Positions 5,356 through 46,003 of a DNA stretch of 64,000 nt are shown here, in pieces. Position numbers and translations under genes: made by a program. The notes beneath the pieces were generated by a model. The model worked only from the letters and a program-made list of their open reading frames with translations. It did not search any database and was not told where the DNA came from. The stretch is from the IMG/VR virus record IMGVR_UViG_3300010268_000001; one strand, 5' to 3'. Position 1 is the first letter of the stretch. Each line of letters begins with the position of its first letter. Source of the stretch: a virus.

Positions 5356-5386
5356 CTAAATGCCTCCTTTGGGACTTGGTGGTATT

Positions 5387-5572: not shown

Positions 5573-5573
5573 T

Positions 5574-9827: not shown

Positions 9828-9830
9828 CTC

Positions 9831-12383: not shown

Positions 12384-12387
12384 AGAC

Positions 12388-19032: not shown

Positions 19033-19033
19033 A

Positions 19034-19447: not shown

Positions 19448-19450
19448 TCC

Positions 19451-19963: not shown

Positions 19964-19966
19964 CTC

Positions 19967-20373: not shown

Positions 20374-21105
20374 TTATTTATAGATTGTGTACTTACTGTC
20401 ATATACTCGCTTCTTGTCAGGGCTTATATATACAGGATTGTTGCCATAGCCCCAGTAACCCTTCACGCTTATATCAAGGTGTACAAAGTCGTCACCTATT
20501 GCTATGCCGCCAAAGCCCATATACCAGGCTTGGTCTGCTATTATATATCGTTCTTCTCCGGTTGCTGCAACGTCTACTGCAATCCCGCCAGTGTGCGGGC
20601 TATATGTCGCTTTTTGGTTCTTGTTTGCGTATATTTGTTCGTTACGTTCTATTGTTCTAAATGAAGAGTATATATATAATTTATCTTTTTTGAGCTTCGG
20701 GGCGACAAGGTCGTGAAGCTCCGCAAGATAAAAAGCAAAGTCGCGGCGCACGCGACCGTCGCCCTTAAACCCATGATATCTTACGTCGAACCTGTCAGGA
20801 TCGAGCGTAGTAAATATTTCGTCATTCATGATGTTTTTCTGGGCAAAGGCCTGAGCTACCTTTTGATACTCCTGTCTTGTTATACCAGACGGGAGTTCTA
20901 TCTTATCAGGCCATACCCTTATAGGAGGGATTATATATGTCGTATCTCCGCTTGATAAATTAGAGTGCACAGATGCAGATATATCCACCTCGCCGCTTGA
21001 GGTGTTATCTATGGGTATCTCTCCGCTACTATCGAGCAGTTGGTCAATTCTTTCTACCTCTCTTATCTTGGCAAGATATTCTTTTCTTGCATCCTCGTAT
21101 AACAC
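20374..21105 (-). CDS. Peptidase M15-family (Zn D,D/L,D-peptidase) tail-associated lysin (243 aa)
   Basis: IYSSFRT...N, SPHTGGIAVDV and GFGGIAIGDDFVHLDI give the H/D/H Zn ligands of M15 (Peptidase_M15_3-like). Confidence 0.8.
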   Translation of the reverse strand: MLYEDARKEYLAKIREVERIDQLLDSSGEIPIDNTSSGEVDISASVHSNLSSGDTTYIIPPIRVWPDKIELPSGITRQEYQKVAQAFAQKNIMNDEIFTTLDPDRFDVRYHGFKGDGRVRRDFAFYLAELHDLVAPKLKKDKLYIYSSFRTIERNEQIYANKNQKATYSPHTGGIAVDVAATGEERYIIADQAWYMGFGGIAIGDDFVHLDISVKGYWGYGNNPVYISPDKKRVYDSKYTIYK

Positions 21106-21117
21106 TATTTACCCTCC

Positions 21118-24100
21118 TTACATTCCGAATGCCCTAAGCTGTGCTGTACTTGAGTCTACGCTGTAATCTGGCGGCGTAATTCCAAATATGGCGTATATAG
21201 CATTTATTGCTGTCTTACCAAAACCAGAGCCCATAAGGAACTTATCCAATGCACTGCAGTCTTCTCCAGCTATAACGCCTTTATGTCCGTTTATTCCTGC
21301 AACGAATGGCTTGCCTCTGTAATTTAGCGGTATAATTGTAAGCGCTTGTCTTGCTTTTAGCCAGCGGGCATGTCTTTCTACCACGCTGTTTATAAGTACG
21401 CTTATAGCAATATCAATGGCTATTTCTATTAGTAGCGATAGACCAGCTGTTCCTGCTGCCGCACCAGCACGCACAACAAGGGCTGAAGTTCCTCTGATTG
21501 CCGCCGCAGTTCCTTCTCCTGCTGTCTTTAGCGTAAACTTGGTAAGTTTTGATGTGCCTCTCCATAATCTGTTTAATGTTTTTGTGTAAAAGCCTGTTTC
21601 GGTAACGATTGCGCTCTTTTTGAATATCTTAAGATCGTCTATATACCGTGCAACGCCGCCTTTTGTTGTGACTGTGTCCTTAATATTACCAAAGATCTTT
21701 GCCATCTTTGTTAATATTGTGTCTTGTACGACGCCGTCTACAGTCTTAGTCTTTAAGAGTATTTTAGATAGGCCCTCTTTTATTTGCTGATAATCTGCTG
21801 CCCTTGCTGCTGCTTTGGCTGCATCGTCGATATTTGGGTTAATCAGTTTGCCTAGGTAAGAGCACAGATCATCACTTAGGTTGGATAGTGTCTTTAGTTC
21901 TGCGTCTGTCGCACCCGCCATCTTGCCAAGTACGTTCACAATTATCTTGTTTGTAGTCCATTTACCTGCTTTTCTGAACAATGCAGCAATAGGACTTCCC
22001 CATATCTTCTTCCACATTGTATTTTTAGTAAGCATACCTATGGTAAACATTACAGCGCCTATTGCTGTTCCTGCAAGCCAGCTATTTAATGAAATACCTT
22101 GCATATCGTCTATAACAGATACGCAGTCAGGTGTTATAGATGTAACAAAACCTGTTTCCATTGAGAAATGATGGACTACGCGCTGGATTTCAGCAAGGCC
22201 GGCCATGTCGGTATAGCTGTCGTTGATATAGAACTTGTCGTACGGCTTTGCCGTTGGGTCTCCTAGAACTATCAGCTCACCCTGGTACATGTCCTTCACA
22301 TAATCGCGGAGAGCTGACGCCGCTGCTGCTTCTGCGTACTTAGCCTGAGTCCAGAAGTTTTTATACCATACATCGGAATCATAGGGTAGGTTAATGATTG
22401 CTGTCTTCTGTTTTTCCGGGGCTATATCTGAGTCGAGCTGAACTACTCTTGTTCTTTTCTTGCCGTCGTCCCATACTCCAATTACGTTAGTATACATGAA
22501 TTCGTCAGTTGCCTTGATATCGTTCTTTATAATATCGAAATGGTCTGTGTATATCTTTAGTTGCGATAAGGCCCTTCTCTCGTATGAATATGGTTCACGG
22601 ACGAACATATCGTACTTGGTGTCGTAGTAATATTTGTACTTATACCTATCAATTACTCCCCACCATGGCTTGCCGTAGAAGACAGTGCTCCTGAATTCAA
22701 ACGGCACGACAGTTACTATATAATCTGGACATGCATGAGCGAACGCCTGCATAACTCCCCACGGAGTCTTGTCGAACAGATTTATGCGAACGTTCGGCTC
22801 GTCGCCTATGCCCTGTCCAGAACCATTTATATCAACCCAATTCCACCTGAATCCAAATTCTTGCCCTTTCTTAGTGCCTTCGGTGTAAACCCACTGGCTT
22901 AGCGTGTTTATTCCAGCAGAGCAGTATATATTCTGACCGCATTCTCCATAATCCTCAAACTTGTTAAACATATCCCAGCGCCTTAGCAGGACTGCGTCTG
23001 GCATGCTTGTAACACCAAAATGGACTATTCCGAGCGGATTGGAATTGTAGAAAACCCCACCAGATACTCTATTAGCGAGGTTCTGTAAAAATGATCCCTT
23101 GGACGTAAGCAGTCCACACATGAAGTCACGTGGTTCTATTGTTTTCTTTGTTATGAACCATCCACTTTCATTGGTGTCACCGGGGCTCACACGAAGCTTA
23201 TTGCACAGTTCTATGCCATCGCCCTGTGCCATAATCGTTACTATTTCTCCTGCGTTCATCTCTGTTATAACGCCATTGAATACTACTGGGAGCCTATATG
23301 CATTAGAGCCGTAACCCATTCTTAAATGTATTCTCGCTCCGGGCTTTAGCATTAGTGTATTAAGCTCGTCTCTTCTTGCTAGTAGGATTTCATCATCGGG
23401 AAGATCCCAGATGGTACGCCATACTTTCTGTTTTGCGTATTTATTGCCCCAGATAAGATCGCCGAGTGTATAATCCCACTCGCCATAGCTTACTTCGTTG
23501 TCATAGGTCGTGAGATTGTGGTATATATTAGCGAGTGTGATAACACATGTATCTGCGGCAATCTTTCTGTCACGACACAAATCTATTGAAACAATGGCAT
23601 TATATCCATAGAAGTTATCCCATAGCTTGTGCCATGCCATCCATCTGCCTTCGTCGATGATGAACATCTGATATGTCGGGAATGCCCTTACAAGTCTTCC
23701 GCGCTGGTCGTACTCAACAATGTCCTTAAATGCGCTTCTGTACAGTATCGCTATATCGTCTGGGGATATAATTGCACCTCTGATAGCATCCTGTGTGTCA
23801 ATTGAGTCTATGACGATTTCTGCAAACTCGGCATTCTCAAAATCTGCTATTTCGTATATCTTTCTTGTGTCGATACTGCTCTTGATGCTATCTATCATGT
23901 GGCTCTTGAAGTACGGCGAAGAATATGGATAGTTATTCTGCTCGAGCTTTGTAATTGCTATAACAGCCGTATCGAAGAAATACTGCGCTGCGCCCTCTTT
24001 GATAATAATATATTGCTTGTCAGCGTCAAACGTACCAGTTGTTTTAAATTCTTTTATAACTTCTTTGACGTAGTCTTCAAGTTTATATCCCTGAAGCTTA

Positions 24101-27100
24101 CTCTTCCTATGTTTCCATAATGATTGCTTTGTGGTGTCAGTGCTACCTGCGTCTTTTACCAGGTTGTCGTACAGACTGAATTGACCTGTTGTATCAGCAA
24201 CTAATACGTCGTTTATTACTCTTGCGTATAAGGAGTATCTTTCGTATTCTGTCAGGTCAAATACTATATCCTGAGGAGAAGTCGCGTTGGCAATATTTTT
24301 ATAGTGTTCTGTGTCTATAACGTCTGTGCCCAGTATACTGTTATATAAAGCTCCTTCATACGCCATGCGTGTTGCTTCTGTTTTCTGATTGAACGATAGT
24401 ATCTTTGCAAGACCGGAGTCATTAACGAATTTAGACAGCTTGATGTATAGCTTGTCTTTCGATAGGTATTCTTTGATGCGCTGCAGCTTCTCAGTTGCCT
24501 GAATCTGCGAATTGGCTACGCTGGCATCGCGTAACGACGTTGGAGTAGCGCCGACGTATACTGGATCTGCTCCGTACTTTGTCTTAAATCTCTTCATGAC
24601 TGCATTATAGTAGTCTACTTGGTTTGGGTCTGAATAGTTTCTAAGACCACTTTCTGGTCCTTTATTGTAGCATACGATTGCCCAGTCGAGCGGGTTTTCT
24701 TTTGCGTCTGCGTTACCAAGTTTGTCAGAGTGTGTAATTGCAAGGTTGTACTGCTGTGCGAAGAATTCTACCCCTCTGTATAGATTGTATTTCCAGTCCC
24801 ATGCTGCTCTTCTTGCCTGATCGAGGTTTTGTAGAATCCCAGACGTATACGCATTAAGCTGGGCGATACCTATGTCGTTTGTCTTGCTCCATATTGGAAT
24901 GCCATTACCATCAAACTGTTTCCATCCTGATTCAAGGTCGTACAGGGCTTTTAGGACGTTGACAACCTTTTCTCTTGTAATTTTCGGAGGTGATATCCTA
25001 TTATCGGAATACTTATACGTATACAGATAATTATTACCAGATGAGATAAGGTCAGCCTCTGACGGCAGATCTCTGAAGAATCCCGTATTATCATCACATA
25101 CAATTTCAGTTAGATATTGCACAAATTCCGCTTCCGTGGGATTTTTAAACCTGTTTGCACGTATACTCGCAATTACATTGTCTGATGCATTGTTAAGGTT
25201 AAACCAGCGCTTTATCTCTTCGTCTGTAGGCGACTTAATGACTGCTTCTTTAGTGATTGTGGCTTTTATTTTTTCAGGGACTTTTGGCCCCATTGAGCCA
25301 ACTGATGCTTTCACAATTTCGTTAGGATTTGTCTTTGCTCCCGGTATGGTCTTGGGATCGTATCTGGTTGTTTGTATGGCGTTGATATCTGTTGTGTACC
25401 CCCATCCGGTTTGTTTATCTGTTCTTTGCCCTACATAAACCTCATTTAAGTTCTGTTCAATCCATTCTAGTGTCTCGTCTGAATATATCGCGCTAGGCTG
25501 TGTCATGCCGCCATTAATCTGCTGTCCTCTTGTCGGAGTAACTTCAAACATTTCAAAACCGAGCTGATCTGTCATATAGATCGGCACTTGTCCGTCTTCG
25601 AGTATTGCATATACATAATCCCTAAATGTGTGCTCACACCTAATATAGAAATCAGGATCTACAAACTTGGCATTATCTGGATTAGGATAGTGCAGAAACG
25701 GCATACCATTAGGGTATGTTATCTTAAGATGTGGTAAAATCTCGTTTACTTCTTCATATGTTGGAAGTTCGAGATCAGGGTAGAGTTCAAGCTCCCTCAG
25801 TGTAAAATCTATAATGGCGTACTCAAAACCTGATTCATTTCTTCTTCTCCTTGAGTACGTATCTATAAAGCTTTGCAAGTCATACTCTAAACCACCATAT
25901 GCGGCCACCATGTCGAGTTCTTCTTTTACCCTCTGTGTCTTATCGAACGCAATAAACGATATATTGATTATAAAAGATTCTTTGTCGTTTTGCGATGTTT
26001 CCACTGAAAGCCTTTCTATCAGTACTGACTTAACTCCGAGCAACGAGGTAAGAGGTGTGTTTATTGTCAGTACACCAGAGGTTATTGCTATTCTATATTC
26101 TCTTGCAAGTCTTTGGGCTGTAGACATTAGCTGTCTAAATCTTTCTACCGCCTCCCTGTTCTTTGTTCTGATAGTAAGATCTATTATCGCATCAGAAGAA
26201 CCAAGGTGCTGGTATGTCGGGGTTTCCGCTGACAATATCTGGAGCGGAGTATATATATTATGCATCCGCGCAGCCATTGATTCTATATAGATGTCGTCTA
26301 TTGGAAACTCTGCAGATGGTATATCGGCTTCCGACAAATGAGCCATATAGTTTAGTTTTTCAAACTCACGTTCATAGTCAATAAAAAACAGGGATGTCGC
26401 TTCTTCTGCGTTTCCTATTATAGATACAAGCGTTTCGTCATACGGATTAATTGCATAGTAGTTCGTATTTCCGAGCTTGGTCTTAACACGTCTTTTATTG
26501 ACAGGAGAGTTTATCTGTATGATATACATTCCGCCACTATACGGCGCTTCATCATCGCCGAGATACTTCTCGTAAAGACTTGCAGGGCTACCTGCTTCAA
26601 GTGTATCCTCAACAACGCTGGCGGAGCGAACACCTGACACACCGGGCGAGCTTACAAATCTATTAGAAACATATTGCACAGTAATTGTAGACTTGGCAGT
26701 GAACGACACGTACAGGTTTGCTATACTACTGTCTTTAACCATAGACCATGCCGGGTCGCTAGAGAAGCGGTATGCCATATTATTGATGATATACAAAATC
26801 TCACGCATTTTATACATAATAAAGTATGCAGTTGCAGACCCGTGCATTGTACTCGTGCCAAAATAGGTGTATGCAACTATATTATAAAGCGCAACCGCAT
26901 ATTTTGCTGCTTTTGATGAATCGTTGCTTCTACCGCTAATAAGTTCCCTAACCTCTTCATATATCTCGGTGACATCAAATAAGCCGCTTGAGTTGTACAT
27001 TTTTGGATACGAAGATGCCGGATATCTTTTTAAAGCCTGCCTAAACCTGTCAAACTGCTCGCGTGCCATACCTATGTGTTCTGCTTCTTTAAGTATCTCA

Positions 27101-29334
27101 CCAACTGTCGTATTATCTTTTATATTGGCTTCTCTGAATAGTCTTGGATGTATCTTATTTACAAGGTCGTAGATCGCTTGCTTGCGTTCGTTTAGCACCG
27201 CCTCATCAGGGATTGAGAACGAGATGGTATCGTCAAGCCTGTTAAGTTTTGCGTAATATGATCTTTCGGGTTTATCAGACGGATTTAACGATCTTTGATA
27301 GAACCATCTGAATAACGGCCAGCAAAACGTAGATGCAAAGTCTTCTTCCTGCGGCATATAGACGGTATGATCAAATTGCAGGAGAGTTAATCTTGCTTGC
27401 AGGCATGACGGAAAACCTGGGACAGTTGCTATCTCCAGGTCTTTTAGTACAACAGCATATATATTAAAACGTTCGTTCAAAAGCTCATTCTCTATAGGCA
27501 GAAAAGGCGCTCTCTTGAACTGGGCTATCAGCGGACGCAGACCATTGCGATAATATGTCATTCCTTTTGGTCCGGGCATCTCATACCCGTTGACAGATTC
27601 AAGATTAGGGAAGAATAAATCTATTGTTATAACTGTATCGGAATATCCACTTTGTATTTGCATTGACGACTTGCTTCTCAGTGTCTGTAATCTTACATTG
27701 GACGCCTGCGTATCCACGTGAATTGATAACGGGGGAACAAGGAACATGCAGTCGCCTATTCTTAATTTAAACTGGTTGTACGGATCAAAACCCATCTGTT
27801 CATCTAGGCGGTTCCTGTCGTCGATCCTCATATTCTCATAGTCTTCGGTTTCACAGTCAGCGGGGACGAGGTTATAGTTATTGAGTTTAAATCCGCCTTC
27901 CCATAGGTCGTCTTCGTTGTCTTCAAAGATTTCATATCTATCAATCGAGATTACGCGCCCAGGATATAAGTCTATGTCGCCAATCTGATTTGTTAATTCA
28001 TTAACAGAAATGCCAAATTCAGCAGCTATACTGCTTAAAGTATCGCCAGGCTGGACGATATAGCTATCCACACCTGTTTTTACCTTATATTGTCTATTAT
28101 ACACTAATTCTACCTTATTGTCAAGCGCGTCAAGAGGCGTCTGAGGCAGCATGCTAAGCCCGTATTTATCAAGAAACGCCTGCATGCCGCTTGAATTTTT
28201 CTTTTCCAGCTCGTATTTCCTTATTTCTTCTACGCGCTTGTCGTAGTCAGGCGCATACAACCACCATGTATGGATGTCGAACTTACTTACTATGGTTCCA
28301 TTGCTATCCATACTATACTCGTATGTGGGCTCACCAAGGGCAAATTCAGGGAATCTCTTTGACTTGTTTGCTATGATTGATGTATTGACGCAAATTGTGA
28401 GCTCCTGATCATTTAAACCCGTATACCCTTGCGTGCTATCGAGATACACGACTCCTACAAGGCGGCCATCCTTGTCAAATTTAGGCTGGTCTCCGGGTAT
28501 GTTGTTGTCGTCGACCTCTGCAATTACGATAACCTTCTTGTTTAATACTAGCCCTTCAACAAACTCTCTTGCTTCTTCAGCAAGCGCACATATTTTGTCC
28601 ATTATGCCATTTTCTTCTGTTGGTGGCTCAAGGCCATGTCTTGCAGCCCACTCCATATTTTTGTTATACCACGATGTGTCGATATCCTTCTTAGTTTCGG
28701 GACACAGTACACCAACGAGACGCACTGTCAGAGGTCTTCCGACAAATTCGCTTCCAACCTTGTTCTGTTCTTCCACACTTATTCTTATGGTGTCACCGTC
28801 TGTTACACCGTATACCGTACCTTTGACCCACATATCTTTTGATGTGAGGACAGGCTTATAGTCATATTTAACAACATAATCGTCAAACGTGGGTCTTGGA
28901 ATATCAATAGGCTGCGTATGCGATCGTATAAGCTTTCTCGACTCTACTGTGATCTCTATCTTTATAATCATTATGCCGTTTTCGTATGCGGGGTTTGGCG
29001 AATATTCTATGTAACCGACAACAGGAAGGGATTCTGGAAAACCCCCTCCGTTGTCTATATTAAGAATAGACATGGCGTTTCTTAGTCTTTCGCCTATATT
29101 TACTGAATGAACAACAGCGTATGTTGTGCTGTATACCGGGTTGTCCTCAGTCTGCTCTGTAAACATTATCTTGAATTTATACATGTTCTTTGTAAGATCC
29201 ACATTATCGAGATAGCTCTCTGGAACATTAAGCGCTGTTGCTACAGAGGTGCGGACTGTCCCAGATTGCGAATTGTCTGCTCCATATGGTGTTACATCTA
29301 ATACTTGTATGTTAGCCCGCTTAATGCTTGCCAT
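21118..29334 (-). CDS. Giant baseplate hub / tail-associated lysin: SNase-like nuclease + LysM + tube/hub folds + SLT lytic transglycosylase (2738 aa)
   Basis: SNase: VYGVTDGDTIRI...VRLVGVLCPE...DKDGRLVGVVY (about 28360-28830). LysM: YIVQPGDTLSSIAAEFGIS (about 27945-28070). SLT: LYDLESGWKQ...DIGIAQLN...WAIVCYNKGP (about 24580-24965). Hub: PGARIHLRMGYG...VFNGVITEM and GELIVLGDPTAKPYDKFYI. Confidence 0.8.
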   Translation of the reverse strand: MASIKRANIQVLDVTPYGADNSQSGTVRTSVATALNVPESYLDNVDLTKNMYKFKIMFTEQTEDNPVYSTTYAVVHSVNIGERLRNAMSILNIDNGGGFPESLPVVGYIEYSPNPAYENGIMIIKIEITVESRKLIRSHTQPIDIPRPTFDDYVVKYDYKPVLTSKDMWVKGTVYGVTDGDTIRISVEEQNKVGSEFVGRPLTVRLVGVLCPETKKDIDTSWYNKNMEWAARHGLEPPTEENGIMDKICALAEEAREFVEGLVLNKKVIVIAEVDDNNIPGDQPKFDKDGRLVGVVYLDSTQGYTGLNDQELTICVNTSIIANKSKRFPEFALGEPTYEYSMDSNGTIVSKFDIHTWWLYAPDYDKRVEEIRKYELEKKNSSGMQAFLDKYGLSMLPQTPLDALDNKVELVYNRQYKVKTGVDSYIVQPGDTLSSIAAEFGISVNELTNQIGDIDLYPGRVISIDRYEIFEDNEDDLWEGGFKLNNYNLVPADCETEDYENMRIDDRNRLDEQMGFDPYNQFKLRIGDCMFLVPPLSIHVDTQASNVRLQTLRSKSSMQIQSGYSDTVITIDLFFPNLESVNGYEMPGPKGMTYYRNGLRPLIAQFKRAPFLPIENELLNERFNIYAVVLKDLEIATVPGFPSCLQARLTLLQFDHTVYMPQEEDFASTFCWPLFRWFYQRSLNPSDKPERSYYAKLNRLDDTISFSIPDEAVLNERKQAIYDLVNKIHPRLFREANIKDNTTVGEILKEAEHIGMAREQFDRFRQALKRYPASSYPKMYNSSGLFDVTEIYEEVRELISGRSNDSSKAAKYAVALYNIVAYTYFGTSTMHGSATAYFIMYKMREILYIINNMAYRFSSDPAWSMVKDSSIANLYVSFTAKSTITVQYVSNRFVSSPGVSGVRSASVVEDTLEAGSPASLYEKYLGDDEAPYSGGMYIIQINSPVNKRRVKTKLGNTNYYAINPYDETLVSIIGNAEEATSLFFIDYEREFEKLNYMAHLSEADIPSAEFPIDDIYIESMAARMHNIYTPLQILSAETPTYQHLGSSDAIIDLTIRTKNREAVERFRQLMSTAQRLAREYRIAITSGVLTINTPLTSLLGVKSVLIERLSVETSQNDKESFIINISFIAFDKTQRVKEELDMVAAYGGLEYDLQSFIDTYSRRRRNESGFEYAIIDFTLRELELYPDLELPTYEEVNEILPHLKITYPNGMPFLHYPNPDNAKFVDPDFYIRCEHTFRDYVYAILEDGQVPIYMTDQLGFEMFEVTPTRGQQINGGMTQPSAIYSDETLEWIEQNLNEVYVGQRTDKQTGWGYTTDINAIQTTRYDPKTIPGAKTNPNEIVKASVGSMGPKVPEKIKATITKEAVIKSPTDEEIKRWFNLNNASDNVIASIRANRFKNPTEAEFVQYLTEIVCDDNTGFFRDLPSEADLISSGNNYLYTYKYSDNRISPPKITREKVVNVLKALYDLESGWKQFDGNGIPIWSKTNDIGIAQLNAYTSGILQNLDQARRAAWDWKYNLYRGVEFFAQQYNLAITHSDKLGNADAKENPLDWAIVCYNKGPESGLRNYSDPNQVDYYNAVMKRFKTKYGADPVYVGATPTSLRDASVANSQIQATEKLQRIKEYLSKDKLYIKLSKFVNDSGLAKILSFNQKTEATRMAYEGALYNSILGTDVIDTEHYKNIANATSPQDIVFDLTEYERYSLYARVINDVLVADTTGQFSLYDNLVKDAGSTDTTKQSLWKHRKSKLQGYKLEDYVKEVIKEFKTTGTFDADKQYIIIKEGAAQYFFDTAVIAITKLEQNNYPYSSPYFKSHMIDSIKSSIDTRKIYEIADFENAEFAEIVIDSIDTQDAIRGAIISPDDIAILYRSAFKDIVEYDQRGRLVRAFPTYQMFIIDEGRWMAWHKLWDNFYGYNAIVSIDLCRDRKIAADTCVITLANIYHNLTTYDNEVSYGEWDYTLGDLIWGNKYAKQKVWRTIWDLPDDEILLARRDELNTLMLKPGARIHLRMGYGSNAYRLPVVFNGVITEMNAGEIVTIMAQGDGIELCNKLRVSPGDTNESGWFITKKTIEPRDFMCGLLTSKGSFLQNLANRVSGGVFYNSNPLGIVHFGVTSMPDAVLLRRWDMFNKFEDYGECGQNIYCSAGINTLSQWVYTEGTKKGQEFGFRWNWVDINGSGQGIGDEPNVRINLFDKTPWGVMQAFAHACPDYIVTVVPFEFRSTVFYGKPWWGVIDRYKYKYYYDTKYDMFVREPYSYERRALSQLKIYTDHFDIIKNDIKATDEFMYTNVIGVWDDGKKRTRVVQLDSDIAPEKQKTAIINLPYDSDVWYKNFWTQAKYAEAAAASALRDYVKDMYQGELIVLGDPTAKPYDKFYINDSYTDMAGLAEIQRVVHHFSMETGFVTSITPDCVSVIDDMQGISLNSWLAGTAIGAVMFTIGMLTKNTMWKKIWGSPIAALFRKAGKWTTNKIIVNVLGKMAGATDAELKTLSNLSDDLCSYLGKLINPNIDDAAKAAARAADYQQIKEGLSKILLKTKTVDGVVQDTILTKMAKIFGNIKDTVTTKGGVARYIDDLKIFKKSAIVTETGFYTKTLNRLWRGTSKLTKFTLKTAGEGTAAAIRGTSALVVRAGAAAGTAGLSLLIEIAIDIAISVLINSVVERHARWLKARQALTIIPLNYRGKPFVAGINGHKGVIAGEDCSALDKFLMGSGFGKTAINAIYAIFGITPPDYSVDSSTAQLRAFGM

Positions 29335-29348
29335 TTGTCTTGCCTCCC

Positions 29349-36164: not shown

Positions 36165-39100
36165 CTACTCGGAAAACAAGAATGCTAAGTTATTGTTGAT
36201 TTCTCTCTTAACATCCTCTCTTCTGTCGTACATCATATTCACGTCGATATTAAGTAGGTCTGAAGGATCATCCGTTTCTTCGGTGAATATCTTTATATCG
36301 ACATCTTCTATTCCTGCGCCTGATAGAACTTTTTTGAGCGCTCCTATATCTATTGCATTGGGCAGTAACTTTCTTATTCTCGGTAGTCTGGGTGCATTCT
36401 TTGCGAATTCGACATCATCGGGCCAGAATCCAAATTCGCCGATGTCGAGCGCAGTATTTTGAACAAACTTAACCTTTATTGCTTCAAGAGAGACCCCAGG
36501 TTTCCATCCTATCCAGTCCGGCGAGGGCAGATAATGGGTAGCGAAGTATTCTTCAAGCGACGGCTTTCTGTCTAGTTTGAGTCCCCACTTAGCCTGATAA
36601 AATCTTCTCTGGTTCTTGGGTATGATCCTCAGTATCTCTTCGCGCTCTTCTGGCGTAGCTGTCATAAAGTACCTGAAGAATGGCCTGTCTTTCTTTGGTA
36701 ACGCTCTATATATAGTACGGAAGTCCCCATGCGGATCTGCTCCATAAAGCGTTGCCTGGTATTCTGTCCTATATTGTAGAGCGCGAATAGTATATGGTCC
36801 TGCGGCAAGCAGTATCCTATCGCTTGCTATATCCCTTAGTCTCGCGTTTATTGCGCTAAGGTTTTCTTTTTTTGATTCTTCGTCGTCAGAGTAGCTGACT
36901 TTAAGCCAGCGCTTAACATTTTCAAGGCGCCTTCTTTCGGAAGCAGTCTTAGCGCCTCTTTGCTCTGACATCTGTGCGATTGATTCTGGATCTATGCCTT
37001 CATATTCTATAGCAAGTTCCCTTGCTTTTTCGTATAATCCTCTATATTTGACGTATTTTAATATATCGAAGTATTCTTCTATTTCTCTTTCGATACGCCT
37101 TCTTCTTGGAATCCATGTGTAGTCAAAGTCTCCGGTTAGCCTTCTTCCGGCTTCATAGAATGCTCTTAAGCTTGCAGGTATACCTCCTATTGCTGCGCCT
37201 ATTATTGCTCCTATTTCTTTTGAATGTTTTGCTGCTCCAAATAGTGCGCCAAGTGCTGCTCCTGCAAGTGTAGAAACTAATGGTCTGCCAGCGGTAAGTT
37301 TATTTATTGTAGGCACAATCCAATCTCTAACAGGATGCGACCACGACTGCCAGTCTTTACCGTAGAGCATTTGTCTCTTATAATGCTCAAGAGGAGACCT
37401 GACTTTCAAGAACTTAGTATGGAATGGCGTATCAAGATGCGCAAATGCCTCCCAGAACTTACCTAAGGTGATTGTGTTTTCTCTGTACAGAGCATTGACT
37501 GTTACTGCGTCAGTGTCATCGAACTTGCCTTTAACGGCTCTTTCCCCGCCTATGCCAAACAGGAATCCGCCATAAGTCTTTCTTGCAAGCTTAGCCTGCA
37601 AAGGATCTCCCCATACGTCATATACGACCGCCGGCATTGTCTGCATCGTATCGTCGTTATAACGCATTAACGGGTCCTCTGCTATACCTATTCTTATCTT
37701 GTTGCCGGGTGTAATATATCTTGATATATTTGCGAGTACTTCACCATAATACTCTGATGTTTTTGCAGGAAGCTTAATACCGGCCATCCTGATAGCGACG
37801 CCGGGATATTCTTTTGTTGTAAATGTAATCGGGTCAATTACCCTTTCGATAGTAACAGTCTTCTTCTCGATTTGGTCTGCATACTTAAACTTATACGGAT
37901 ATAGATCGTATTTTTCCTTCCTCTGGCTGACCATCTCGCGGATTCTCTGAGCATCTTCATAGTCTCTGTCAGAGATCAGTTTATCCTCATGCATCATGGT
38001 TACTACTTTACTGTAATACTTATATTGCTCAGACCATGGTGCAACGTCAGCCAAAATCTTAAATCTGTCGAGTGCTCCGTACCTTCCAAAAATCGGGTCT
38101 GGATGTAGCCTGTTTATCGCTTCGTATCCGGGACCAGGAAGCCTTGCTTCGCCCATCGGTATCTTCACATATGGGTCGCCATGCTTGAAGTCAAGGAAAT
38201 ACTCAAGGCCCGGCATCCAGTCAGGCATCTGGTTGCGGATCGGATTATACTCTCTTATCTGTCTTCTTCTGTGAGGAAGAAATCTACGATATATTTCGGA
38301 AAGCTCCCCGCCTAGACCGCCAAGACCAAGATCCCAGAATGCGCGTTCAAGTGACGTCATTCTTGATGAATCTTGTAGTTGTACATGAGGAGAAGTAGCG
38401 TCTTCTATACCAAAGAAAGTATTGGCAAGGAATCCATATATACCGCCTATTTCTGTTAGCGAGTACGCTGTCTCTCCTAGGCGGTACGCAACAGAGTTAG
38501 GATCCATTGCCTTTTCAAGACTTTCTACATAGAAATGGTCTCTTAATGAAGCTACACTTCTTCCGTCAATAGGTCTTAAGTCTGCATATGATGCGTACGT
38601 CTGGTTAATAGCAGCTATTCCGCCATAACCACTACCGACGGTATATGTGTAGCCTCCGCCTCCATACTCGCCTCCTACGCCGTATCCAATTCCATAGCCC
38701 TCTCCTTCGCCTTCTTCTCGTTCAATGACACCTGGACCTATTCCGTAGCCTATGCCGCCTTCGGCCCCTTCAGGCGATACAGCTGCGCCGCCGGTACCGA
38801 ATGCAACGGGCTGTATACGCCCACCGGGATAAATCATTAGAATAGCACCGCGGTTAGTCTGTTCGGCGAAGGCTTTATACATATCATTTATTTCTTTTAG
38901 ATAGCTTTCATGTGCCCTCTTAAGATCGGGATGCTTTCTTGGAGGTTTAAAGATAAAGCTTAATGGTATATCTATGAGCGGACCTACTATCGGGATTTGT
39001 CTGAATGGAGTTCCTCCGCTCACTGGATATGGCCTTGTTTCTCTATGCTTACGTTCATAATGATACGGATCGAGCAGCGTCCTTATTCCGAAAAGATTCC

Positions 39101-42100
39101 TCGGGTTCGGGAACCAGGTATATCCCCAGTATTCTGCTTCTGAACCATAGAGGACATCTGTATACTTGGGTTCGCCCATTACTCTCCTATACCATGACGG
39201 AGCGAAGTATTCAATTCTGTCTCCGTACCATGGTGTATTAGAACCTATATCCCAGAATCTTCCCTTGCGAATAGGCTCGTAGCCTTTTTCATAGTAGTAC
39301 TTCTTTTCTTCGTAGCCAGACGAATCGCCAATTAATCCGAATGTACCATACTTGAGAGCCAATCCTATTGGGTTTTCAGATAATAGGTTAAGTCCCGGAA
39401 ATGTTCTCCTTAACTCCTGGCTCATCCAGTTAAGACCTGTTATGTCTTTGAAGCGCTGCACATCCAGCGTCATTTGTGCATACGCCCTGGCAAACGTCTG
39501 GTTGGGTTTTTCTCCACTTGGATTAAGATTGCCAAGCTCGAAGTTGATATATCTTAATCCGTAGAAGGTTGCAAGAGGTAGGAGTATACGCCTTGTAAGC
39601 AGGTTCCAAGCTATATCCTGAGCAGAACCCATGTTTTTATTGGAAAGACCAAGACCTATTGATGCTATACCTTCTTGGAGTCTATAGAAATAATGGTAGA
39701 ATCCAAAACTTGTCGTGGTGAGTCTTTCGGGATTGAATCTGCCTGCTCTATATTTCTTCGAGCCAAAACCAATCTCAGCTAGCGTGTCAAGGCCCCAGGA
39801 TTTTAGCTTGCGCCCAACTTCTCCTATCGTTCCAGAGGTAATCTCACGTATTCCGCCGCCAGACTTTATTATCTCGTTTATATCCTCTATAGTTTGTCTG
39901 GTTCTTGATATTACGCTGCCTCTTCGTATCGGTATATAATCTTCAAAGTAGAATCTCGGGCGCTCACCAGGGCCCACACCAAGAACAGGGTTAGCCTTTT
40001 TTATCATCTGTTCAAGGTGCTCTCTTATTATTTTTTGCGATTCGTTCGCTGGTTTAGTAAGAAGTCCTAGAAACTTCTCAGGTTCTGTAAGACGACCAGA
40101 TACGCCGAGATTCATCAAATCGCTTAATGTATAAAGATTAAGTATCTCGTCGGCTTGTTTTTCAGTAAGAACACCAGACTCGAGCAGATCCTTTACCAAA
40201 GAACCAACAGTTACACCTTTATCTATACTCTGCGCACGGTGTAACAGCTCCATATGTAATGTTTTCTGAGCCTGGCTTATATTTGTTATAAGCTCTGTTT
40301 TATTCGATGTGATGGATTCGAGAAAATCAGGAAGTGCAGTGTCACGGCCCCTCTTTGCTGTGCGGGCTATGCTATGTAGTGACTCTGGATCTTGTATGTA
40401 TTGTTCAAGTATTCTCTCGAACTCACGTCGTGTCCCGGGTCTTAAGCTGTCGTCCTGTATGAGCTTATATATAGCGCGGAGAGTACCTTCTTCGGTCGTG
40501 TTCTCCATTAAGATTTGATATATATCTGGATCTATATAATCCTTAAGAGTTTTGATTGTATCCCTTGACAGGCTCGTGGTCATATTGTCCACGGTATTCA
40601 GGAACTTGCTGTATGCTTTGTTTAGAAAATCTAGTACTTCTTCTTCTGTCTTGCCAAAATTGCCCTGCTCTATATTATACCATATATTTCTATCCCAGTC
40701 AAGGTTCCAGAATTTCGTAACGGCAGAGAACTTTCTCTTTAAGGCACTTTCATATTCTTGGTTACCTATATCGTAGATTTCTTTTAGATATTCAATGAGT
40801 GTACTCGGCTCTCTTGCTTCCCTTTTGGTGTATCCAAGTATAGGTGCGAGCTCCCTTTGGAATAGGCCAGTCCTCGGAGAAGCAAGAGTAATATTTTCTG
40901 CTACTACCTGACCTTGTCTATTGATAATGCTACCGCCGGAGTAGTAGTAGTCATCTATTGGTAAGTCTCTGCCTATTAACTTAATAATTGAGCCTATCTT
41001 TTCTCTTTGAAATACATGGAATGGTATGTCCTCGGCGGCCTCTCTTCCAAATACAGTAAGAAGTCTGAACGGCCTGATATTTAACAGTGGTATCTGGAAA
41101 TTTTCAGATAACGTCTTTAATGTTTTAGATGGAACCGTACGCAGGAATCTAAAGTCAAATACTTCTCCTGTTGCTCTGTTAATGAATACTAGCGGGTCAA
41201 CTATCGCATCTTCCATACCAGGTATTGTGCTTAGTGCTCTGGGCCTTACCATCGTTCTTTCAATTTTGCCGCCAGCTTTTGGAATATCTTTTGTGAGGCT
41301 TGTATAATCAAATATGCCCATCTTGACTGCGTCACTAAGAGTAAGAAGGTCGTAGTCAGGAAACATACTTTGTATTATTTTTGTTCCTGCTGTCGTGCTC
41401 TTCTGGAATCTAAGTGCAGCCTGGTCGCTTGCTTCTTTTATGACCTTTACTCTTTGTGCGATAGCTTCCCTGTTTTCTCTGATAAAGGCTTTTCTGTCGC
41501 TATATTTGATGAGAGTTTCTCTTAGATCGCTAAGCCCCGACTTTACTGCAGGGATGTCGTGGAATCTTGATGTTATCTCAAAGTGCTCCATTGCACTCTT
41601 CAAAGCTTTTTCTATTGCTTTTTCCTTGTTATACTGCGCTCCTTTGCCTTGTATGACTTCTCTTTCAAACCCAGTCGTAATGAGTCTCTTGTCTTCTTTT
41701 AACATCTTCTCTATCGCTTTGAAGAGTTCTGGGTTTTCTTTGGCCCATTCTTTTTCAGCAACATCAGACAGTACCTTTTCAAGTCTAAAGTTTAATATCT
41801 CTCTTTCAGCGATCTTCCTGTGTGAATCGGCAAGTTTGCTAAACCACTTTTCTATACGCGTAGGCTCGCCGCTTAGCGTAGGTTTACCAGCCATTTTGCG
41901 TGCCTCTGTAACCGCATGTGTCCTAAAAGACTGACGCATGTTAGCCTCGAGTGTTTCCTGCGCTCCACCCAATAGGGTCTTAAATACACCTTCTTCGCGG
42001 AATGTCTTGTTAAGGCCAGACAGATAGCTGGATGTGCGCGAGAGCGTCTGATTCATCTTGCTTACACCTTCAGACAGGAGCCCTTCTTTGTCAAGGTATT

Positions 42101-42239
42101 TAAGACCTTTATAGGCAGCATAACCACCGGCTGCTATAAGGCCTATCCTACCGACAGTCTTTATGGCATTCGATAAAAAAGAATGACGAGGATACTCGTC
42201 GTCGCCGTTGAGGTACTTGCGGTATTCGTTGTCTGCCAT
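36165..42239 (-). CDS. Tape-measure-like / ejection protein with degenerate SNase-like OB domain (2024 aa)
   Basis: Immediately follows the tail chaperones (canonical TMP position). Mostly helical, with Gly/Ala-rich hydrophobic helices, a Gly-Tyr-rich linker (about 38620-38800) and an OB-like TVTIERVIDPITF...IRMAGIKLP segment (about 37600-37865). Confidence 0.6.
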   Translation of the reverse strand: MADNEYRKYLNGDDEYPRHSFLSNAIKTVGRIGLIAAGGYAAYKGLKYLDKEGLLSEGVSKMNQTLSRTSSYLSGLNKTFREEGVFKTLLGGAQETLEANMRQSFRTHAVTEARKMAGKPTLSGEPTRIEKWFSKLADSHRKIAEREILNFRLEKVLSDVAEKEWAKENPELFKAIEKMLKEDKRLITTGFEREVIQGKGAQYNKEKAIEKALKSAMEHFEITSRFHDIPAVKSGLSDLRETLIKYSDRKAFIRENREAIAQRVKVIKEASDQAALRFQKSTTAGTKIIQSMFPDYDLLTLSDAVKMGIFDYTSLTKDIPKAGGKIERTMVRPRALSTIPGMEDAIVDPLVFINRATGEVFDFRFLRTVPSKTLKTLSENFQIPLLNIRPFRLLTVFGREAAEDIPFHVFQREKIGSIIKLIGRDLPIDDYYYSGGSIINRQGQVVAENITLASPRTGLFQRELAPILGYTKREAREPSTLIEYLKEIYDIGNQEYESALKRKFSAVTKFWNLDWDRNIWYNIEQGNFGKTEEEVLDFLNKAYSKFLNTVDNMTTSLSRDTIKTLKDYIDPDIYQILMENTTEEGTLRAIYKLIQDDSLRPGTRREFERILEQYIQDPESLHSIARTAKRGRDTALPDFLESITSNKTELITNISQAQKTLHMELLHRAQSIDKGVTVGSLVKDLLESGVLTEKQADEILNLYTLSDLMNLGVSGRLTEPEKFLGLLTKPANESQKIIREHLEQMIKKANPVLGVGPGERPRFYFEDYIPIRRGSVISRTRQTIEDINEIIKSGGGIREITSGTIGEVGRKLKSWGLDTLAEIGFGSKKYRAGRFNPERLTTTSFGFYHYFYRLQEGIASIGLGLSNKNMGSAQDIAWNLLTRRILLPLATFYGLRYINFELGNLNPSGEKPNQTFARAYAQMTLDVQRFKDITGLNWMSQELRRTFPGLNLLSENPIGLALKYGTFGLIGDSSGYEEKKYYYEKGYEPIRKGRFWDIGSNTPWYGDRIEYFAPSWYRRVMGEPKYTDVLYGSEAEYWGYTWFPNPRNLFGIRTLLDPYHYERKHRETRPYPVSGGTPFRQIPIVGPLIDIPLSFIFKPPRKHPDLKRAHESYLKEINDMYKAFAEQTNRGAILMIYPGGRIQPVAFGTGGAAVSPEGAEGGIGYGIGPGVIEREEGEGEGYGIGYGVGGEYGGGGYTYTVGSGYGGIAAINQTYASYADLRPIDGRSVASLRDHFYVESLEKAMDPNSVAYRLGETAYSLTEIGGIYGFLANTFFGIEDATSPHVQLQDSSRMTSLERAFWDLGLGGLGGELSEIYRRFLPHRRRQIREYNPIRNQMPDWMPGLEYFLDFKHGDPYVKIPMGEARLPGPGYEAINRLHPDPIFGRYGALDRFKILADVAPWSEQYKYYSKVVTMMHEDKLISDRDYEDAQRIREMVSQRKEKYDLYPYKFKYADQIEKKTVTIERVIDPITFTTKEYPGVAIRMAGIKLPAKTSEYYGEVLANISRYITPGNKIRIGIAEDPLMRYNDDTMQTMPAVVYDVWGDPLQAKLARKTYGGFLFGIGGERAVKGKFDDTDAVTVNALYRENTITLGKFWEAFAHLDTPFHTKFLKVRSPLEHYKRQMLYGKDWQSWSHPVRDWIVPTINKLTAGRPLVSTLAGAALGALFGAAKHSKEIGAIIGAAIGGIPASLRAFYEAGRRLTGDFDYTWIPRRRRIEREIEEYFDILKYVKYRGLYEKARELAIEYEGIDPESIAQMSEQRGAKTASERRRLENVKRWLKVSYSDDEESKKENLSAINARLRDIASDRILLAAGPYTIRALQYRTEYQATLYGADPHGDFRTIYRALPKKDRPFFRYFMTATPEEREEILRIIPKNQRRFYQAKWGLKLDRKPSLEEYFATHYLPSPDWIGWKPGVSLEAIKVKFVQNTALDIGEFGFWPDDVEFAKNAPRLPRIRKLLPNAIDIGALKKVLSGAGIEDVDIKIFTEETDDPSDLLNIDVNMMYDRREDVKREINNNLAFLFSE

Positions 42240-42259: not shown

Positions 42260-42979
42260 TCAGAGTAACTCCTCGTCATATATCGGAATGTCTGGAATTG
42301 GCTTTCCTTTCATAAACGCTTCGATTTGTGCCAATTCAGGGAAATCGAAGATACTACCACCTTCTATCTGGAAGTCGAGTTGCGTAGCCTTATACTTGTC
42401 TTCGGATTTGTCATTATCCGCAGGCTTGTCTACAGGTTTTTCTTTAGGCGCCTGAGTTACTGCAGTGTCTTGCTGGCTGCCATCTCCTTTATAGATGTAT
42501 TCAAGCTCTATGCCACGCAGTGTGCTAAGTATGTACTCGGCTCTGGTAAAGTACCATATTGTCTTTTCCATCGGCCAGCTCTCGATTTCCTCTATACTAA
42601 GTTCAGGAAACGCCTCTTTGATGACGCATGCCATCTGATTATCAAGTGTTTCCATTTCTTTTCTGTACTTTTCAAGATACTCGACGAACTTTCCAGTATC
42701 CTCTGTAAAACCAGATTCATGCAATATTAAGTTTGCCAGCGTTGTTGGAATACCTGCAAGACAGTCACCAAAATCATAGTCCTCAGGCTCAAGCACACAA
42801 AGGTGACAGATATATTCTTCTAGCGCAAGCGGATTGTCCTTATATAATCTTAATCCTTGTCTGTATTCAAGGCGAGAGATCTCGCGGAAGAGAAATTCCT
42901 GATCAGCTATTTCAACATAATATAAATTCCAATATTTATTCTTCCATTCTACAAACTGTTGTATCTCCAATAATATCAC
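42260..42979 (-). CDS. Tail assembly chaperone 2 (239 aa)
   Basis: Position between the tube genes and the TMP-like gene. Paralog of the upstream chaperone. C-terminal PELSIEEIESWPMEK resembles the GT-type extension. Confidence 0.75.
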   Translation of the reverse strand: MILLEIQQFVEWKNKYWNLYYVEIADQEFLFREISRLEYRQGLRLYKDNPLALEEYICHLCVLEPEDYDFGDCLAGIPTTLANLILHESGFTEDTGKFVEYLEKYRKEMETLDNQMACVIKEAFPELSIEEIESWPMEKTIWYFTRAEYILSTLRGIELEYIYKGDGSQQDTAVTQAPKEKPVDKPADNDKSEDKYKATQLDFQIEGGSIFDFPELAQIEAFMKGKPIPDIPIYDEELL

Positions 42980-45935: not shown

Positions 45936-46003
45936 CTCCTTGTCCTCCCGTATTATGTATATAAGGGCGGAAATAAATCCGCCCATCAATTAACATTGCA
46001 TAA

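Follow-up and report, generated by a model that had tools for sequence, protein, structure and literature searches.

The 64,000-nucleotide stretch of viral DNA analysed here (the window) encodes, within its tail module, a 2271-aa protein, B, for which there is strong support as a single-chain beta/beta'-type two-barrel RNA polymerase (RNAP) fused to a DEDDh exonuclease. B is the middle member of three consecutive minus-strand ORFs spanning 21118-42239, its neighbours A and C comprising 2024 and 2738 aa, with intergenic gaps of 0-14 nt. The source phage is a jumbo contractile-tailed myovirus related to Bacillus phage 0305phi8-36, and we consider it likely that the trio are internal or distal tail proteins of this jumbo-phage lineage, with B as the carrier of a virion RNAP and C as the hub. 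The three back-to-back proteins of more than 2000 aa in the original prediction are real ORFs, and each possesses the hydrophobic Gly/Ala-rich segment (A 1655-1694, B 2134-2152, C 2618-2653) and the nucleic-acid-handling fold ascribed to it: a degenerate SNase-like OB domain in A, DEDDh exonuclease and RNAP in B, and SNase in C.

A conserved three-gene unit in the tail module

The gene series in the window runs sheath, tube paralogues, chaperone pair, A, B, C, peptidase, gpV-like spike, sheath initiator and Baseplate_J, so that the trio has the two tail chaperone genes on one side and the baseplate genes on the other.

43014..43430, minus strand: tail chaperone-like gene 1, 138 aa (phrog_29362)
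42260..42979, minus strand: tail chaperone-like gene 2, 239 aa (phrog_29368 and phrog_29362), paralogous to gene 1
36165..42239, minus strand: gene A, 2024 aa, gp145-like conserved tail-internal virion protein (tblastn homology)
29349..36164, minus strand: gene B, 2271 aa, exonuclease, RNAP, hydrophobic helix and C-terminal domain (family and collinearity)
21118..29334, minus strand: gene C, 2738 aa, gp147-type baseplate hub (phrog_20474, E=1.6e-229)
20374..21105, minus strand: peptidase/endolysin-like gene, 243 aa, weak M15 match (Pfam and PHROG)
18223..20368, minus strand: baseplate gene block as a whole
19967-20368, minus strand: gpV-like OB spike
19451-19963, minus strand: baseplate-region gene, function unassigned
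19034-19447, minus strand: sheath initiator
18223-19032, minus strand: Baseplate_J

The C-terminal part of chaperone-like gene 1 is paralogous to the N-terminus of gene 2 (E=1e-20), and the pair matches the G/GT-like organization, with two genes, that 0305phi8-36 shows at gp143/gp144 (PMC2147016). As with gp145-gp146-gp147 of that phage, three giant genes follow the pair (PMC2147016); A and C are homologous to gp145 and gp147, and B to the C-terminal ~80 aa of gp146.

The A-B-C order recurs in ~85 loci across IMG/VR and GTDB, so that the module is kept as a unit in relatives, as the original prediction requires. An RNAP is present in 50 of the 71 distinct middle genes (28 by HMM, 22 only by the motif [RK]xP...DxD[GA]D); the signature is absent from the other 21, so part of the lineage can do without the polymerase. 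A divergent group of middle genes, 2.6-3.3k aa in length, is homologous by hhalign in both the RNAP region (probability 90%, E=1.6e-6) and the N-terminal region (probability 99.5%).

B combines an exonuclease with an RNA polymerase

35025..35837, minus strand: DEDDh 3'-5' exonuclease domain, ~aa 110-380 (invariant residues and family profile)
32286..32330, minus strand: beta-type barrel lysine motif IGTKFQGFDSGNKFT, aa 1279-1293 (K1282, K1291; translation and invariance)
30819..30833, minus strand: catalytic DMDGD, aa 1778-1782, preceded by invariant R1732 and P1734 (R-x-P)
29895..32942, minus strand: two-barrel RNAP core, ~aa 1075-2090 (AF2 model macb1c810e75e)
29709..29765, minus strand: Gly/Ala-rich hydrophobic segment, aa 2134-2152 (sequence reading and family consensus)
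29352..29597, minus strand: conserved C-terminal domain, ~aa 2190-2271, ~80 aa (tblastn, BLASTP and HMM)

The B family comprises ~60 representatives at 50% identity, mostly of 2200-2500 aa; B is collinear with KLEB27-3 gp034 and WH1 gp095, and its slot is the one occupied in 0305phi8-36 by gp146, the annotated tape measure. The complete DEDDh set (D125, E127, N288, D293, D320, H367, D372) is invariant in 38/38 relatives, and the family profile matches TREX1-type exonucleases in the PDB (E=2e-7).

For the AF2 model of the RNAP region (pLDDT 79, pTM 0.77), the best 500 Foldseek PDB matches listed are all RNAP beta/beta' chains, with a best E of 2e-7. The beta-like half reaches a VIA Z of 15.4 to beta subunits, the non-virion RNAPs of phages AR9 and phiKZ being among its best matches (Z 14.8-15.2), and the beta'-like half reaches Z 10-11 to beta' subunits; other scores were 10.4 for QDE-1, 9.6 for P74-26 gp62, 8.1 for P23-45 gp96 and 6.2 for crAss-like gp66. 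Pfam RNAP models gave no direct match to B, and the family profile matches RNAP beta'/RPB1 chains in the PDB at E ~3e-3. A flap-like insert (model residues 132-203; VIA Z 6.2-6.3 to beta-flap domains) directly precedes the lysine motif, which is of the GTKF...GNK type and whose K1282 is invariant in 41 sequences. Indeed, K1282, R1732, P1734, D1778, D1780 and D1782 are all invariant among relatives at 17-41% identity, and almost every full-length family member carries a DxDGD motif 450-550 aa before its C-terminal end. The original reading of B as an exonuclease plus RNAP thus draws strong support from the DEDDh set, the DMDGD, the lysine motif and the RNAP-only fold matches, and we predict that both enzymes are catalytically active. 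As a separate lead, the ESM Atlas clusters nearest B carry PF00623.

After the polymerase ~180 aa remain, and no long helical tape-measure-like stretch was seen in the model of aa 1072-2271. The hydrophobic segment lies below the Kyte-Doolittle cut-off used, with 'GA..FGG.WA.SA' conserved in the family consensus. The C-terminal domain, modelled at low confidence (pLDDT 30-60), is retained in more middle-slot proteins than any other part of B: it has tblastn matches in WH1 and Edson and BLASTP matches in 0305phi8-36 gp146 and MTATph1, and its HMM also matches middle genes that do not carry the RNAP. Conservation of the last ~60 aa alone had been seen by Hardies 2007 (PMC2147016). A claimed similarity between the C-termini of A and B proved not significant (BLASTP E=4.1; family-profile hhalign probability 2% over 15 columns against 0.5% for a reversed control), and the C-terminal HMM of B never matches an A protein. 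Since the idea of a tape-measure role shared by A and B was based on this resemblance, it is likewise unsupported.

A and C are conserved tail proteins

37485..37871, minus strand: A, SNase/Tudor-SN-like OB domain, aa 1457-1585 (model ma39a5ef00ddf)
37158..37277, minus strand: A, glycine-zipper hydrophobic segment, aa 1655-1694 (weak Pfam matches and a Kyte-Doolittle peak)
28435..28728, minus strand: C, SNase domain, aa 203-300 (PF00565)
27943..28062, minus strand: C, LysM, aa 425-464 (PF01476, E=5e-9; PDB LysM chains)
24640..24963, minus strand: C, possible SLT lytic transglycosylase, aa 1458-1565 (weak)
21376..21483, minus strand: C, Ala/Gly-rich hydrophobic helices, aa 2618-2653 (Kyte-Doolittle 2.25)

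A has tblastn matches in 0305phi8-36 (ORF145), WH1 (gp096), KLEB27-3, MTATph1 and ME3, and more than 298 relatives with a median length of 2024 aa; searches of Pfam, PHROG and NCBIfam found no family. Its modelled OB domain matches staphylococcal nuclease by Foldseek (E=3e-3, target-normalised TM 0.60-0.65; VIA Z 8.4-9.3), and at the equivalent position one relative, P0145, scores 26.6 bits, above cut-off, with Pfam SNase PF00565. Compared with the nuclease motif, A has lost the catalytic positions. Glycine-zipper Pfam matches are weak (E=0.003-0.005). The designation of A as the tape-measure protein is unproven, its C-terminal 1200 aa being a compact predicted fold (pTM 0.77) with conservation unusually high for a tape measure.

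C has tblastn matches in the 0305phi8-36 ORF147 'baseplate hub protein', the ME3 hub, KLEB27-3 gp035 and WH1 gp094. Its SNase domain, searched with the N-terminal 500 aa, scores 23.7 bits with PF00565 (cut-off 21); in a short phmmer alignment with nuclease the sequence 'TVRLVGVLCPETK' appears, with 'VLCPE' where nuclease has 'VDTPE'. An SNase N-terminus was also noted for the BtI1 homologue of gp147 (PMC2147016), and the lysin domains of 0305phi8-36 gp147 differ from those of C. Of the wall-directed functions predicted for C, wall binding is borne out by LysM; wall cutting is suggested by PF01464 at E=0.12 and an ES...GIAQLN...YNKGP pattern, the region having no significant match in the PDB. 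The M15 peptidase predicted to follow C is a similarly weak assignment (PF05951 E=4e-4 and PF08291 E=3e-3, both below cut-off; phrog_894 endolysin/peptidase E=1e-5).

Virion association and alternative roles for B

That the trio are virion components is supported for the homologues of A and B in 0305phi8-36, where the annotation of gp145 (ORF145) and gp146 records their detection in virions by mass spectrometry (PMC2147016), and for C by homology to the hub. The evidence from gp146, which lacks the RNAP, extends to B only through the C-terminal ~80 aa that the two have in common, and we infer B's own location.

It is conceivable, though unlikely, that B is the true tape measure setting tail length, its enzyme domains being passengers and A an accessory ejection protein. 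Its slot and the historical assignment of gp146 by tail length (PMC2147016) argue for this, as do a C-terminal domain and hydrophobic segment resembling a hub-proximal tape-measure end and the P23-45 precedent of an RNAP forming part of a tape measure (PMC10770324). However, aa 1072-2090 form a compact globular RNAP and ~110-380 a globular exonuclease, leaving no long helical ruler in the parts examined; moreover, it is A that adjoins the chaperone pair, B being one gene away, and middle genes vary from 1245 to 3326 aa among relatives whereas A stays near 2000 aa.

We regard as improbable the proposal that B is not packaged at all and is a late-expressed non-virion polymerase/nuclease housed in a structural operon, serving for instance late transcription or DNA processing. 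In its favour, no direct virion evidence for an RNAP-bearing B was found in the literature examined, and in some relatives, such as KLEB27-3 and WH1, searches with PF05183 found no other phage RNAP. Yet the homologues in these very phages (gp034 and gp095), both with DxDGD, are annotated as structural proteins, B has a hydrophobic helix and shares its C-terminal domain with the MS-verified gp146, and it keeps the same place, after the tail chaperones and before the hub, in ~85 loci; by analogy with N4, phiKZ and P23-45, a late-only polymerase would be useful mainly if carried to the next cell. Least probable of all is that the polymerase and nuclease folds of A, B and C are relics without activity, which serve only a structural purpose inside the tail. 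Such a view would fit the loss of the catalytic positions from the SNase-like domain in A and the 'VLCPE' of C; the invariance of every catalytic residue of both B enzymes at 17-41% overall identity points instead to selection for catalysis.

Relation to known phage polymerases

The closest precedent for B is Thermus phage P23-45 gp96, a tape-measure-fused virion RNAP (PMC10770324; PDB 8H2M/8H2N). Both have a DxDGD two-barrel RNAP inside a giant tape-measure-region protein of the tail module, with hydrophobic segments nearer the C-terminus. P23-45 is a siphovirus, whereas the phage here has a contractile tail; in gp96 an N-terminal RNAP precedes ~3800 aa of tape measure with a metallopeptidase, whereas the RNAP of B follows the exonuclease in the C-terminal half, has a beta-flap-like insert and is structurally closer to cellular and jumbo-phage beta subunits (Z ~15) than to gp96. 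As in P23-45, many relatives have a second RNAP: a separate ~1200-aa PF05183-type enzyme occurs in the records of 14 of 22 near-complete relatives, a layout known in phages with virion and non-virion RNAPs (PMC10770324). Unlike the P23-45 paralogue pair, this second enzyme has no detectable relation to B.

B belongs with the non-virion RNAPs of phiKZ and AR9 (PDB 7OGP, 7S00) to the cell-type beta/beta' lineage and, like them, has a flap; they consist of 4-5 polypeptides, whereas B is one chain with an exonuclease, and their virion counterparts are packaged in the head, whereas B is encoded in the tail module. The single-chain virion RNAP gp66 of crAss-like phage phi14:2 and the QDE-1/YonO-type RNAPs, like B, are giant single polypeptides with two DPBB barrels for which delivery into the host is known or supposed. 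Nonetheless, gp66 and QDE-1 score lower against B, their clade has no flap-type insert (PMC7824862) and gp66 comes from a podovirus. Finally, 0305phi8-36 gp146 lacks DxDxD and matches neither exonuclease nor RNAP HMMs, whereas B has both enzymes.

A proposed model for delivery

Building on the gene order, homology, motif conservation and predicted folds observed for the trio, we propose that B probably enters the host cell by ejection through the tail. Folded as in the model, a protein of ~250 kDa such as B cannot pass a tail tube and would need to be stored and ejected in an unfolded or extended state, its hydrophobic helix and small C-terminal domain perhaps docking at the hub or inside the tube. 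A would be a conserved protein of the tail interior whose glycine-zipper helices act on membranes and whose SNase-like domain binds without catalysis; because its gene lies directly after the chaperone pair, A is the more conventional choice for a tape measure or a channel-forming protein. When the sheath contracts, the hub C, carrying wall-binding (LysM) and putative wall-cutting modules, would breach the wall; A and B would then exit the tube lumen and their hydrophobic helices insert in the membrane. This course would parallel the infection model for P23-45 gp96 (PMC10770324). The exonuclease of B may act, at the point of entry, on the ends of DNA or RNA, while its polymerase would transcribe the first phage genes immediately on entry, independently of host RNAP.

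Organization of the structural module

The window holds a myovirus structural module in which every gene lies on the minus strand. It runs from portal and major capsid protein through sheath and tube-like paralogues and two small paralogous genes to three giant genes, A, B and C, whose intergenic gaps measure 0-14 nt; after C come a peptidase-like gene, a gpV-like OB protein, a sheath initiator and a Baseplate_J gene.

Genes of the structural module
58276-60447 (-), portal, 723 aa
53874-55061 (-), major capsid protein
48830-50290 and 46672-48096 (-), two sheath paralogues
46004-46654, 44232-45989 and 43449-44225 (-), three tube-like paralogues
36165-42239 (-), gene A, 2024 aa
29349-36164 (-), gene B, 2271 aa
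21118-29334 (-), gene C, 2738 aa

The C-terminus of the first small gene upstream of A matches the N-terminus of the second (E=1e-20), the same arrangement as in the G/GT-like pair of chaperones, free of a frameshift, known from Bacillus phage 0305phi8-36 (PMC2147016). One of the three tube-like paralogues carries a cadherin-like insert; in 0305phi8-36, too, the tail tube gene is accompanied by a paralogue (gp140, gp141). Residues 555-715 of the portal ORF also match a head-maturation-protease PHROG (E=3e-6) and may be a C-terminal add-on, and a DNA-repair-exonuclease-like gene (60453-61343; phrog_7339, E=4e-41) sits between a terminase-like ORF and the portal. Downstream of the baseplate (1-15417) lie four large ORFs of >1785 (running off the window), 1417, 850 and 1009 aa, none with a Pfam match and only one with a PHROG, of unknown function; these are presumably fibres.

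Gene B encodes a putative exonuclease-RNA polymerase fusion

The original prediction saw in B an exonuclease joined to an RNA polymerase (RNAP), and this reading is upheld by invariant catalytic residues, profile matches and an RNAP fold in the predicted structure. The N-terminal part carries D-x-E (Exo I), N-x4-D (Exo II), an Asp and H-x4-D (Exo III), the pattern of DEDDh exonucleases; the residues concerned (D125, E127, N288, D293, D320, H367 and D372) are conserved in 38 of 38 relatives, the corresponding columns of a 41-sequence alignment being invariant or nearly so, and the family profile retrieves TREX1-type DEDDh exonucleases from the PDB (E=2e-7). Around an Asp triad the same profile retrieves, weakly, many RNAP largest subunits (beta'/RPB1; E=0.003-0.04). 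The triad itself, DMDGD at aa 1778-1782, is preceded by R1732 and P1734, giving the combination of DxDGD and [RK]xP that marks the beta'-type barrel. An exhaustive HMMER search with aa 1072-2271 yielded approximately 60 representatives at 50% identity, mostly 2200-2500 aa long, and nearly every full-length one has (A/G)DxDGD 450-550 residues from its C-terminus. Across a 41-sequence alignment of 17-41% identity, K1282, R1732, P1734, D1778, D1780 and D1782 are invariant in the RNAP half. In RNAPs of this type a second barrel supplies conserved basic residues, in the beta subunit through a GDKxxxRHGNKG-like motif. K1282 lies in IGTKFQGFDSGNKFT, which resembles GDKMAGRHGNKGV of bacterial beta subunits, and at the position of K1291 the relatives compared have either K or R.

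Searched as single sequences, A and B gave nothing useful in Pfam, PHROGs, NCBIfam or PDB sequences, with no curated RNAP family in Pfam, PHROG or NCBIfam matching B; a homologue search by word index retrieved for the RNAP region of B just the protein itself, a close-relative scan of IMG/VR found no close relatives of B, and the ESM Atlas gave sub-threshold leads for B and no match for A.

Predicted fold of the polymerase

Residues 1072-2271 of B, numbered 1-1200 in the model, were modelled with AlphaFold2 (pLDDT 79, pTM 0.77), model residues 21-1019 being confident. The PDB matches listed by Foldseek for this model are RNA polymerase chains only (best E=2e-7). VIA, a structure search independent of Foldseek, divided the model into two halves, which match beta-type and beta'-type chains respectively and so display the two-barrel fold with beta-like and beta'-like modules. 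The best beta match (Z 15.4) superposes at 3.0 Å over 210 aligned residues, and the best beta' match (Z 11.0) aligns 402.

Structural matches of the gene B model (VIA)
Beta-like half, residues 1-410: plastid, Pol I, phage AR9 and phiKZ beta-type chains, Z 14.8-15.4
Beta'-like half, residues 435-991: RNAP largest subunits, Z 10-11
Insert, residues 132-203, directly before the lysine motif: isolated beta-flap domains, Z 6.2-6.3
Model against QDE-1: Z 10.4
Model against P74-26 gp62: Z 9.6
Model against P23-45 gp96: Z 8.1
Model against crAss-like gp66: Z 6.2

From these matches we assign the B polymerase, as a single-chain enzyme, to the cell-type beta/beta' branch and not to the QDE-1/YonO branch, a ranking of Z across targets of different size being only suggestive. 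Downstream of the polymerase, a low-confidence linker leads to a conserved hydrophobic segment rich in Gly and Ala (aa 2134-2152) and then to a C-terminal domain of approximately 80 aa (aa 2190-2271), which is the only part of B common to enzyme-less middle genes, including gp146 of 0305phi8-36.

Conservation of the module

Among deposited phages, tblastn linked A and C to 0305phi8-36 (ORF145 for A, ORF147 for C), WH1, Edson, KLEB27-3, Moorella phage MTATph1 and Acinetobacter phage ME3, all of which share the order chaperones, A, giant middle gene, hub. The B alignment being too diverse, we seeded a locus scan with the A alignment; this recovered 79 loci from IMG/VR and about ten of full length from GTDB, almost all of them in A-B-C order. 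In the 0305phi8-36 record, gp145 and gp146 are identified in virions by mass spectrometry, gp146 is labelled a hypothetical tape measure and gp147 the hub. Hence the proposal that the three genes form a conserved unit of virion proteins stands, given the mass spectrometry record and the near-constant order in the scan, the presence of B in virions being presumed from annotations of relatives.

In MTATph1 (L004, 12513-19869) a transposase gene splits the middle slot; the remaining pieces keep only parts of the family, with the C-terminal domain in CDS0031. An A-B-C module together with a PF05183-type RNAP also occurs on a 206.5-kb replicon deposited as 'plasmid pla' of Paenibacillus sp. EC2-1 (L091), likely a jumbo phage or phage-plasmid. 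In Acidobacteriaceae and Terracidiphilus MAGs (L096-L156), a 100-200-aa piece of A (approximately aa 1285-1490) recurs many times in acidobacterial chromosomes, often as nearby, oppositely oriented pairs on one contig.

Distribution of RNA polymerases

We counted RNAP features over 71 distinct middle genes, each of at least 1200 aa. An RNAP HMM matched 28 of them; a further 22 had only the signature [RK]xPx(20-100)DxD[GA]D, which by our rough estimate would be expected by chance in only a few percent of proteins; 21 had neither. The motif is absent from gp146 of 0305phi8-36 and from the MTATph1 middle slot, and isolates with an RNAP-bearing B include KLEB27-3, WH1 and Edson. A divergent group of 2.6-3.3k aa is homologous to B in profile-profile comparison, both in the RNAP region (probability 90%, E=1.6e-6) and in the N-terminal region (99.5%, E=1.5e-22).

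A separate gene of approximately 1200 aa for a PF05183-type (RdRP/YonO-like) polymerase occurs in 14 of the 22 near-complete records of relatives with an RNAP-bearing B, from which we take two polymerases to be the usual layout; phages with one virion and one non-virion enzyme are known (PMC10770324). The PF05183 genes range from approximately 1150 to 1750 aa (records G003-G023), and one record holds three matches. In 0305phi8-36 this type is represented by gp99, while none was seen in KLEB27-3 or WH1. Five isolates had suggested that a phage has either a middle-gene RNAP or a PF05183 RNAP, a rule now excluded by the many relatives possessing both. Nor do the B and gp99-type polymerases appear to be paralogues, there being no detectable relation between them (probability 0.2%).

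Genes A and C flank the putative fusion

The A family comprises more than 298 relatives with lengths closely grouped around 2000 aa, whose C-terminal 1200 residues share 35-63% identity. The model of aa 829-2024 is compact (pLDDT 79.6, pTM 0.77) and contains, at aa 1457-1585, an SNase/Tudor-SN-type OB domain (Foldseek E=3e-3, target TM 0.60-0.65; VIA Z 8.4-9.3). A itself is without a Pfam match, and at the equivalent place relative P0145 matches Pfam SNase (PF00565) with 26.6 bits, above cut-off; relative P0166 has an additional PD-(D/E)XK nuclease. Compared with the nuclease motif, the acidic positions appear to be lost in the A segment IRMAGIKLPAK and are not kept in the family consensus, so we read the domain as a putative binding module. 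Outside it, no known fold appeared in the Foldseek and VIA lists for the 1196-residue model, whose other parts these searches barely probed. Apart from its orthologues, A matches a single protein in BFVD, labelled 'large polyvalent protein associated domain'. A glycine-zipper segment occupies aa 1655-1694.

Several gp145-family proteins contain intein, LAGLIDADG or Hint domains (PF14528, PF14890, PF13403), and two contain a subtilase domain (PF00082); relatives with intein-type or subtilase domains are P0070, P0074, P0089, P0090, P0122, P0126, P0133, P0173 and P0182. This suggests that gene A is a frequent intein target.

C is homologous to 0305phi8-36 ORF147 and the ME3 hub by tblastn, and gpV-like, sheath-initiator and Baseplate_J genes lie downstream of it. 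Its description as an SNase-LysM-SLT hub holds for the SNase, LysM and hub core, the SLT match being weak; the M15 peptidase placed after it is peptidase-like, with Pfam scores under cut-off. In the C segment RLVGVLCPE one Asp position of the nuclease motif appears to be lost. A gp27-like fold of the hub is presumed, following Hardies 2007 (PMC2147016).

Domains of gene C and the following gene
SNase, aa 203-300: Pfam PF00565, 23.7 bits against a cut-off of 21 on the N-terminal fragment; supported
LysM, aa 425-464: Pfam; supported
Hub core, approximately aa 1866-2600: phrog_20474, E=1.6e-229; supported
C-terminal hydrophobic helices: Kyte-Doolittle; supported
SLT: LESG...GIAQLN...YNKGP pattern and Pfam PF01464, E=0.12, 12.4 bits; weak
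M15, gene after C: PF05951, 20.6 bits against 27; PF08291, 18 against 23.2; weak

Which gene is the tape measure?

The slot of B, with the chaperone pair and A on one side and the hub on the other, is the one labelled tape measure in 0305phi8-36, where Hardies et al. based the assignment of gp146 on tail length and found conservation limited to the last ~60 residues (PMC2147016). The generic tape-measure position, directly downstream of G/GT-type chaperones and upstream of the hub, is that of A, with B one gene removed. A adjoins the chaperones and keeps a constant length; B varies in length and is largely globular. In 0305phi8-36, KLEB27-3, WH1 and ME3, respectively, A measures 1930, 1340+677 (split over two genes), 2025 and 1263 aa, and B 2537, 2434, 2515 and 1603 aa. 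The modelled parts of both are predicted to be compact (A aa 829-2024 and B aa 1072-2090, pTM 0.77 each). A role shared between the two chains had been considered from the apparent likeness of their C-termini; this likeness is not significant by BLASTP (E=4.1), and family hhalign (probability 2%, reversed control 0.5%) and an HMM cross-search also argue against a common segment. B resembles gp96 of Thermus phage P23-45, a virion RNAP fused to a tape measure, in placing an RNAP domain within a giant protein of the tape-measure region. However, the tape-measure part of the gp96 type extends over thousands of residues with a metallopeptidase, whereas only about 180 aa follow the RNAP in B, in which no peptidase domain was found; a shorter ruler segment may lie within aa 400-1071.

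A model for an injected polymerase

A mechanism can be proposed from the place of the genes in the operon, their homology to a relative's virion proteins and invariant catalytic residues, together with the RNAP and exonuclease folds, the hydrophobic segments and the widely conserved C-terminal domain. The C-terminal end of B would hold the protein in or at the tail, and upon contraction B would leave through the tube. By analogy with P23-45 gp96 (PMC10770324), it might then insert via its hydrophobic helix and transcribe the first entering genes, while its exonuclease could trim DNA or RNA ends at that site.

It is tempting to speculate, with a confidence that stops a little short of even, that a large lineage of jumbo phages with contractile tails, most of them uncultivated, stores a ~250-kDa cell-type beta/beta' exonuclease-RNAP fusion, extended, in an unusually long tail tube that serves as a cargo hold, and fires it into the host ahead of or with the DNA for host-independent first transcription, coupled to 3'-5' trimming of nucleic acids at the entry pore. 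The 'tape measure' gene would then encode an injected enzyme, and gp145 (A) would be the real ruler or channel. The literature we found deals with the fusion in P23-45, the module of 0305phi8-36, RNAPs of jumbo phages and polyvalent proteins; in this search, which was not exhaustive, no paper reported that the middle slot of this lineage encodes an RNAP or an exonuclease.

A tail-borne polymerase has been shown once, in a Thermus siphovirus. If the model is correct, the principle would also hold for jumbo phages with contractile tails, there with an added exonuclease and a polymerase of another lineage (single-chain, cell-type and flap-bearing), and 0305phi8-36-like phages would need re-annotation of the gene now called 'tape measure' or 'structural protein'; A and B currently belong to no Pfam, PHROG or NCBIfam family. 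It also raises the question of how a large globular enzyme is stored in, and passes through, a tail tube. Furthermore, B offers a handle for testing host-RNAP-independent early transcription in the 0305phi8-36-like group and, as a compact single-chain beta/beta' polymerase, may provide a minimal model of cellular-type RNAPs.
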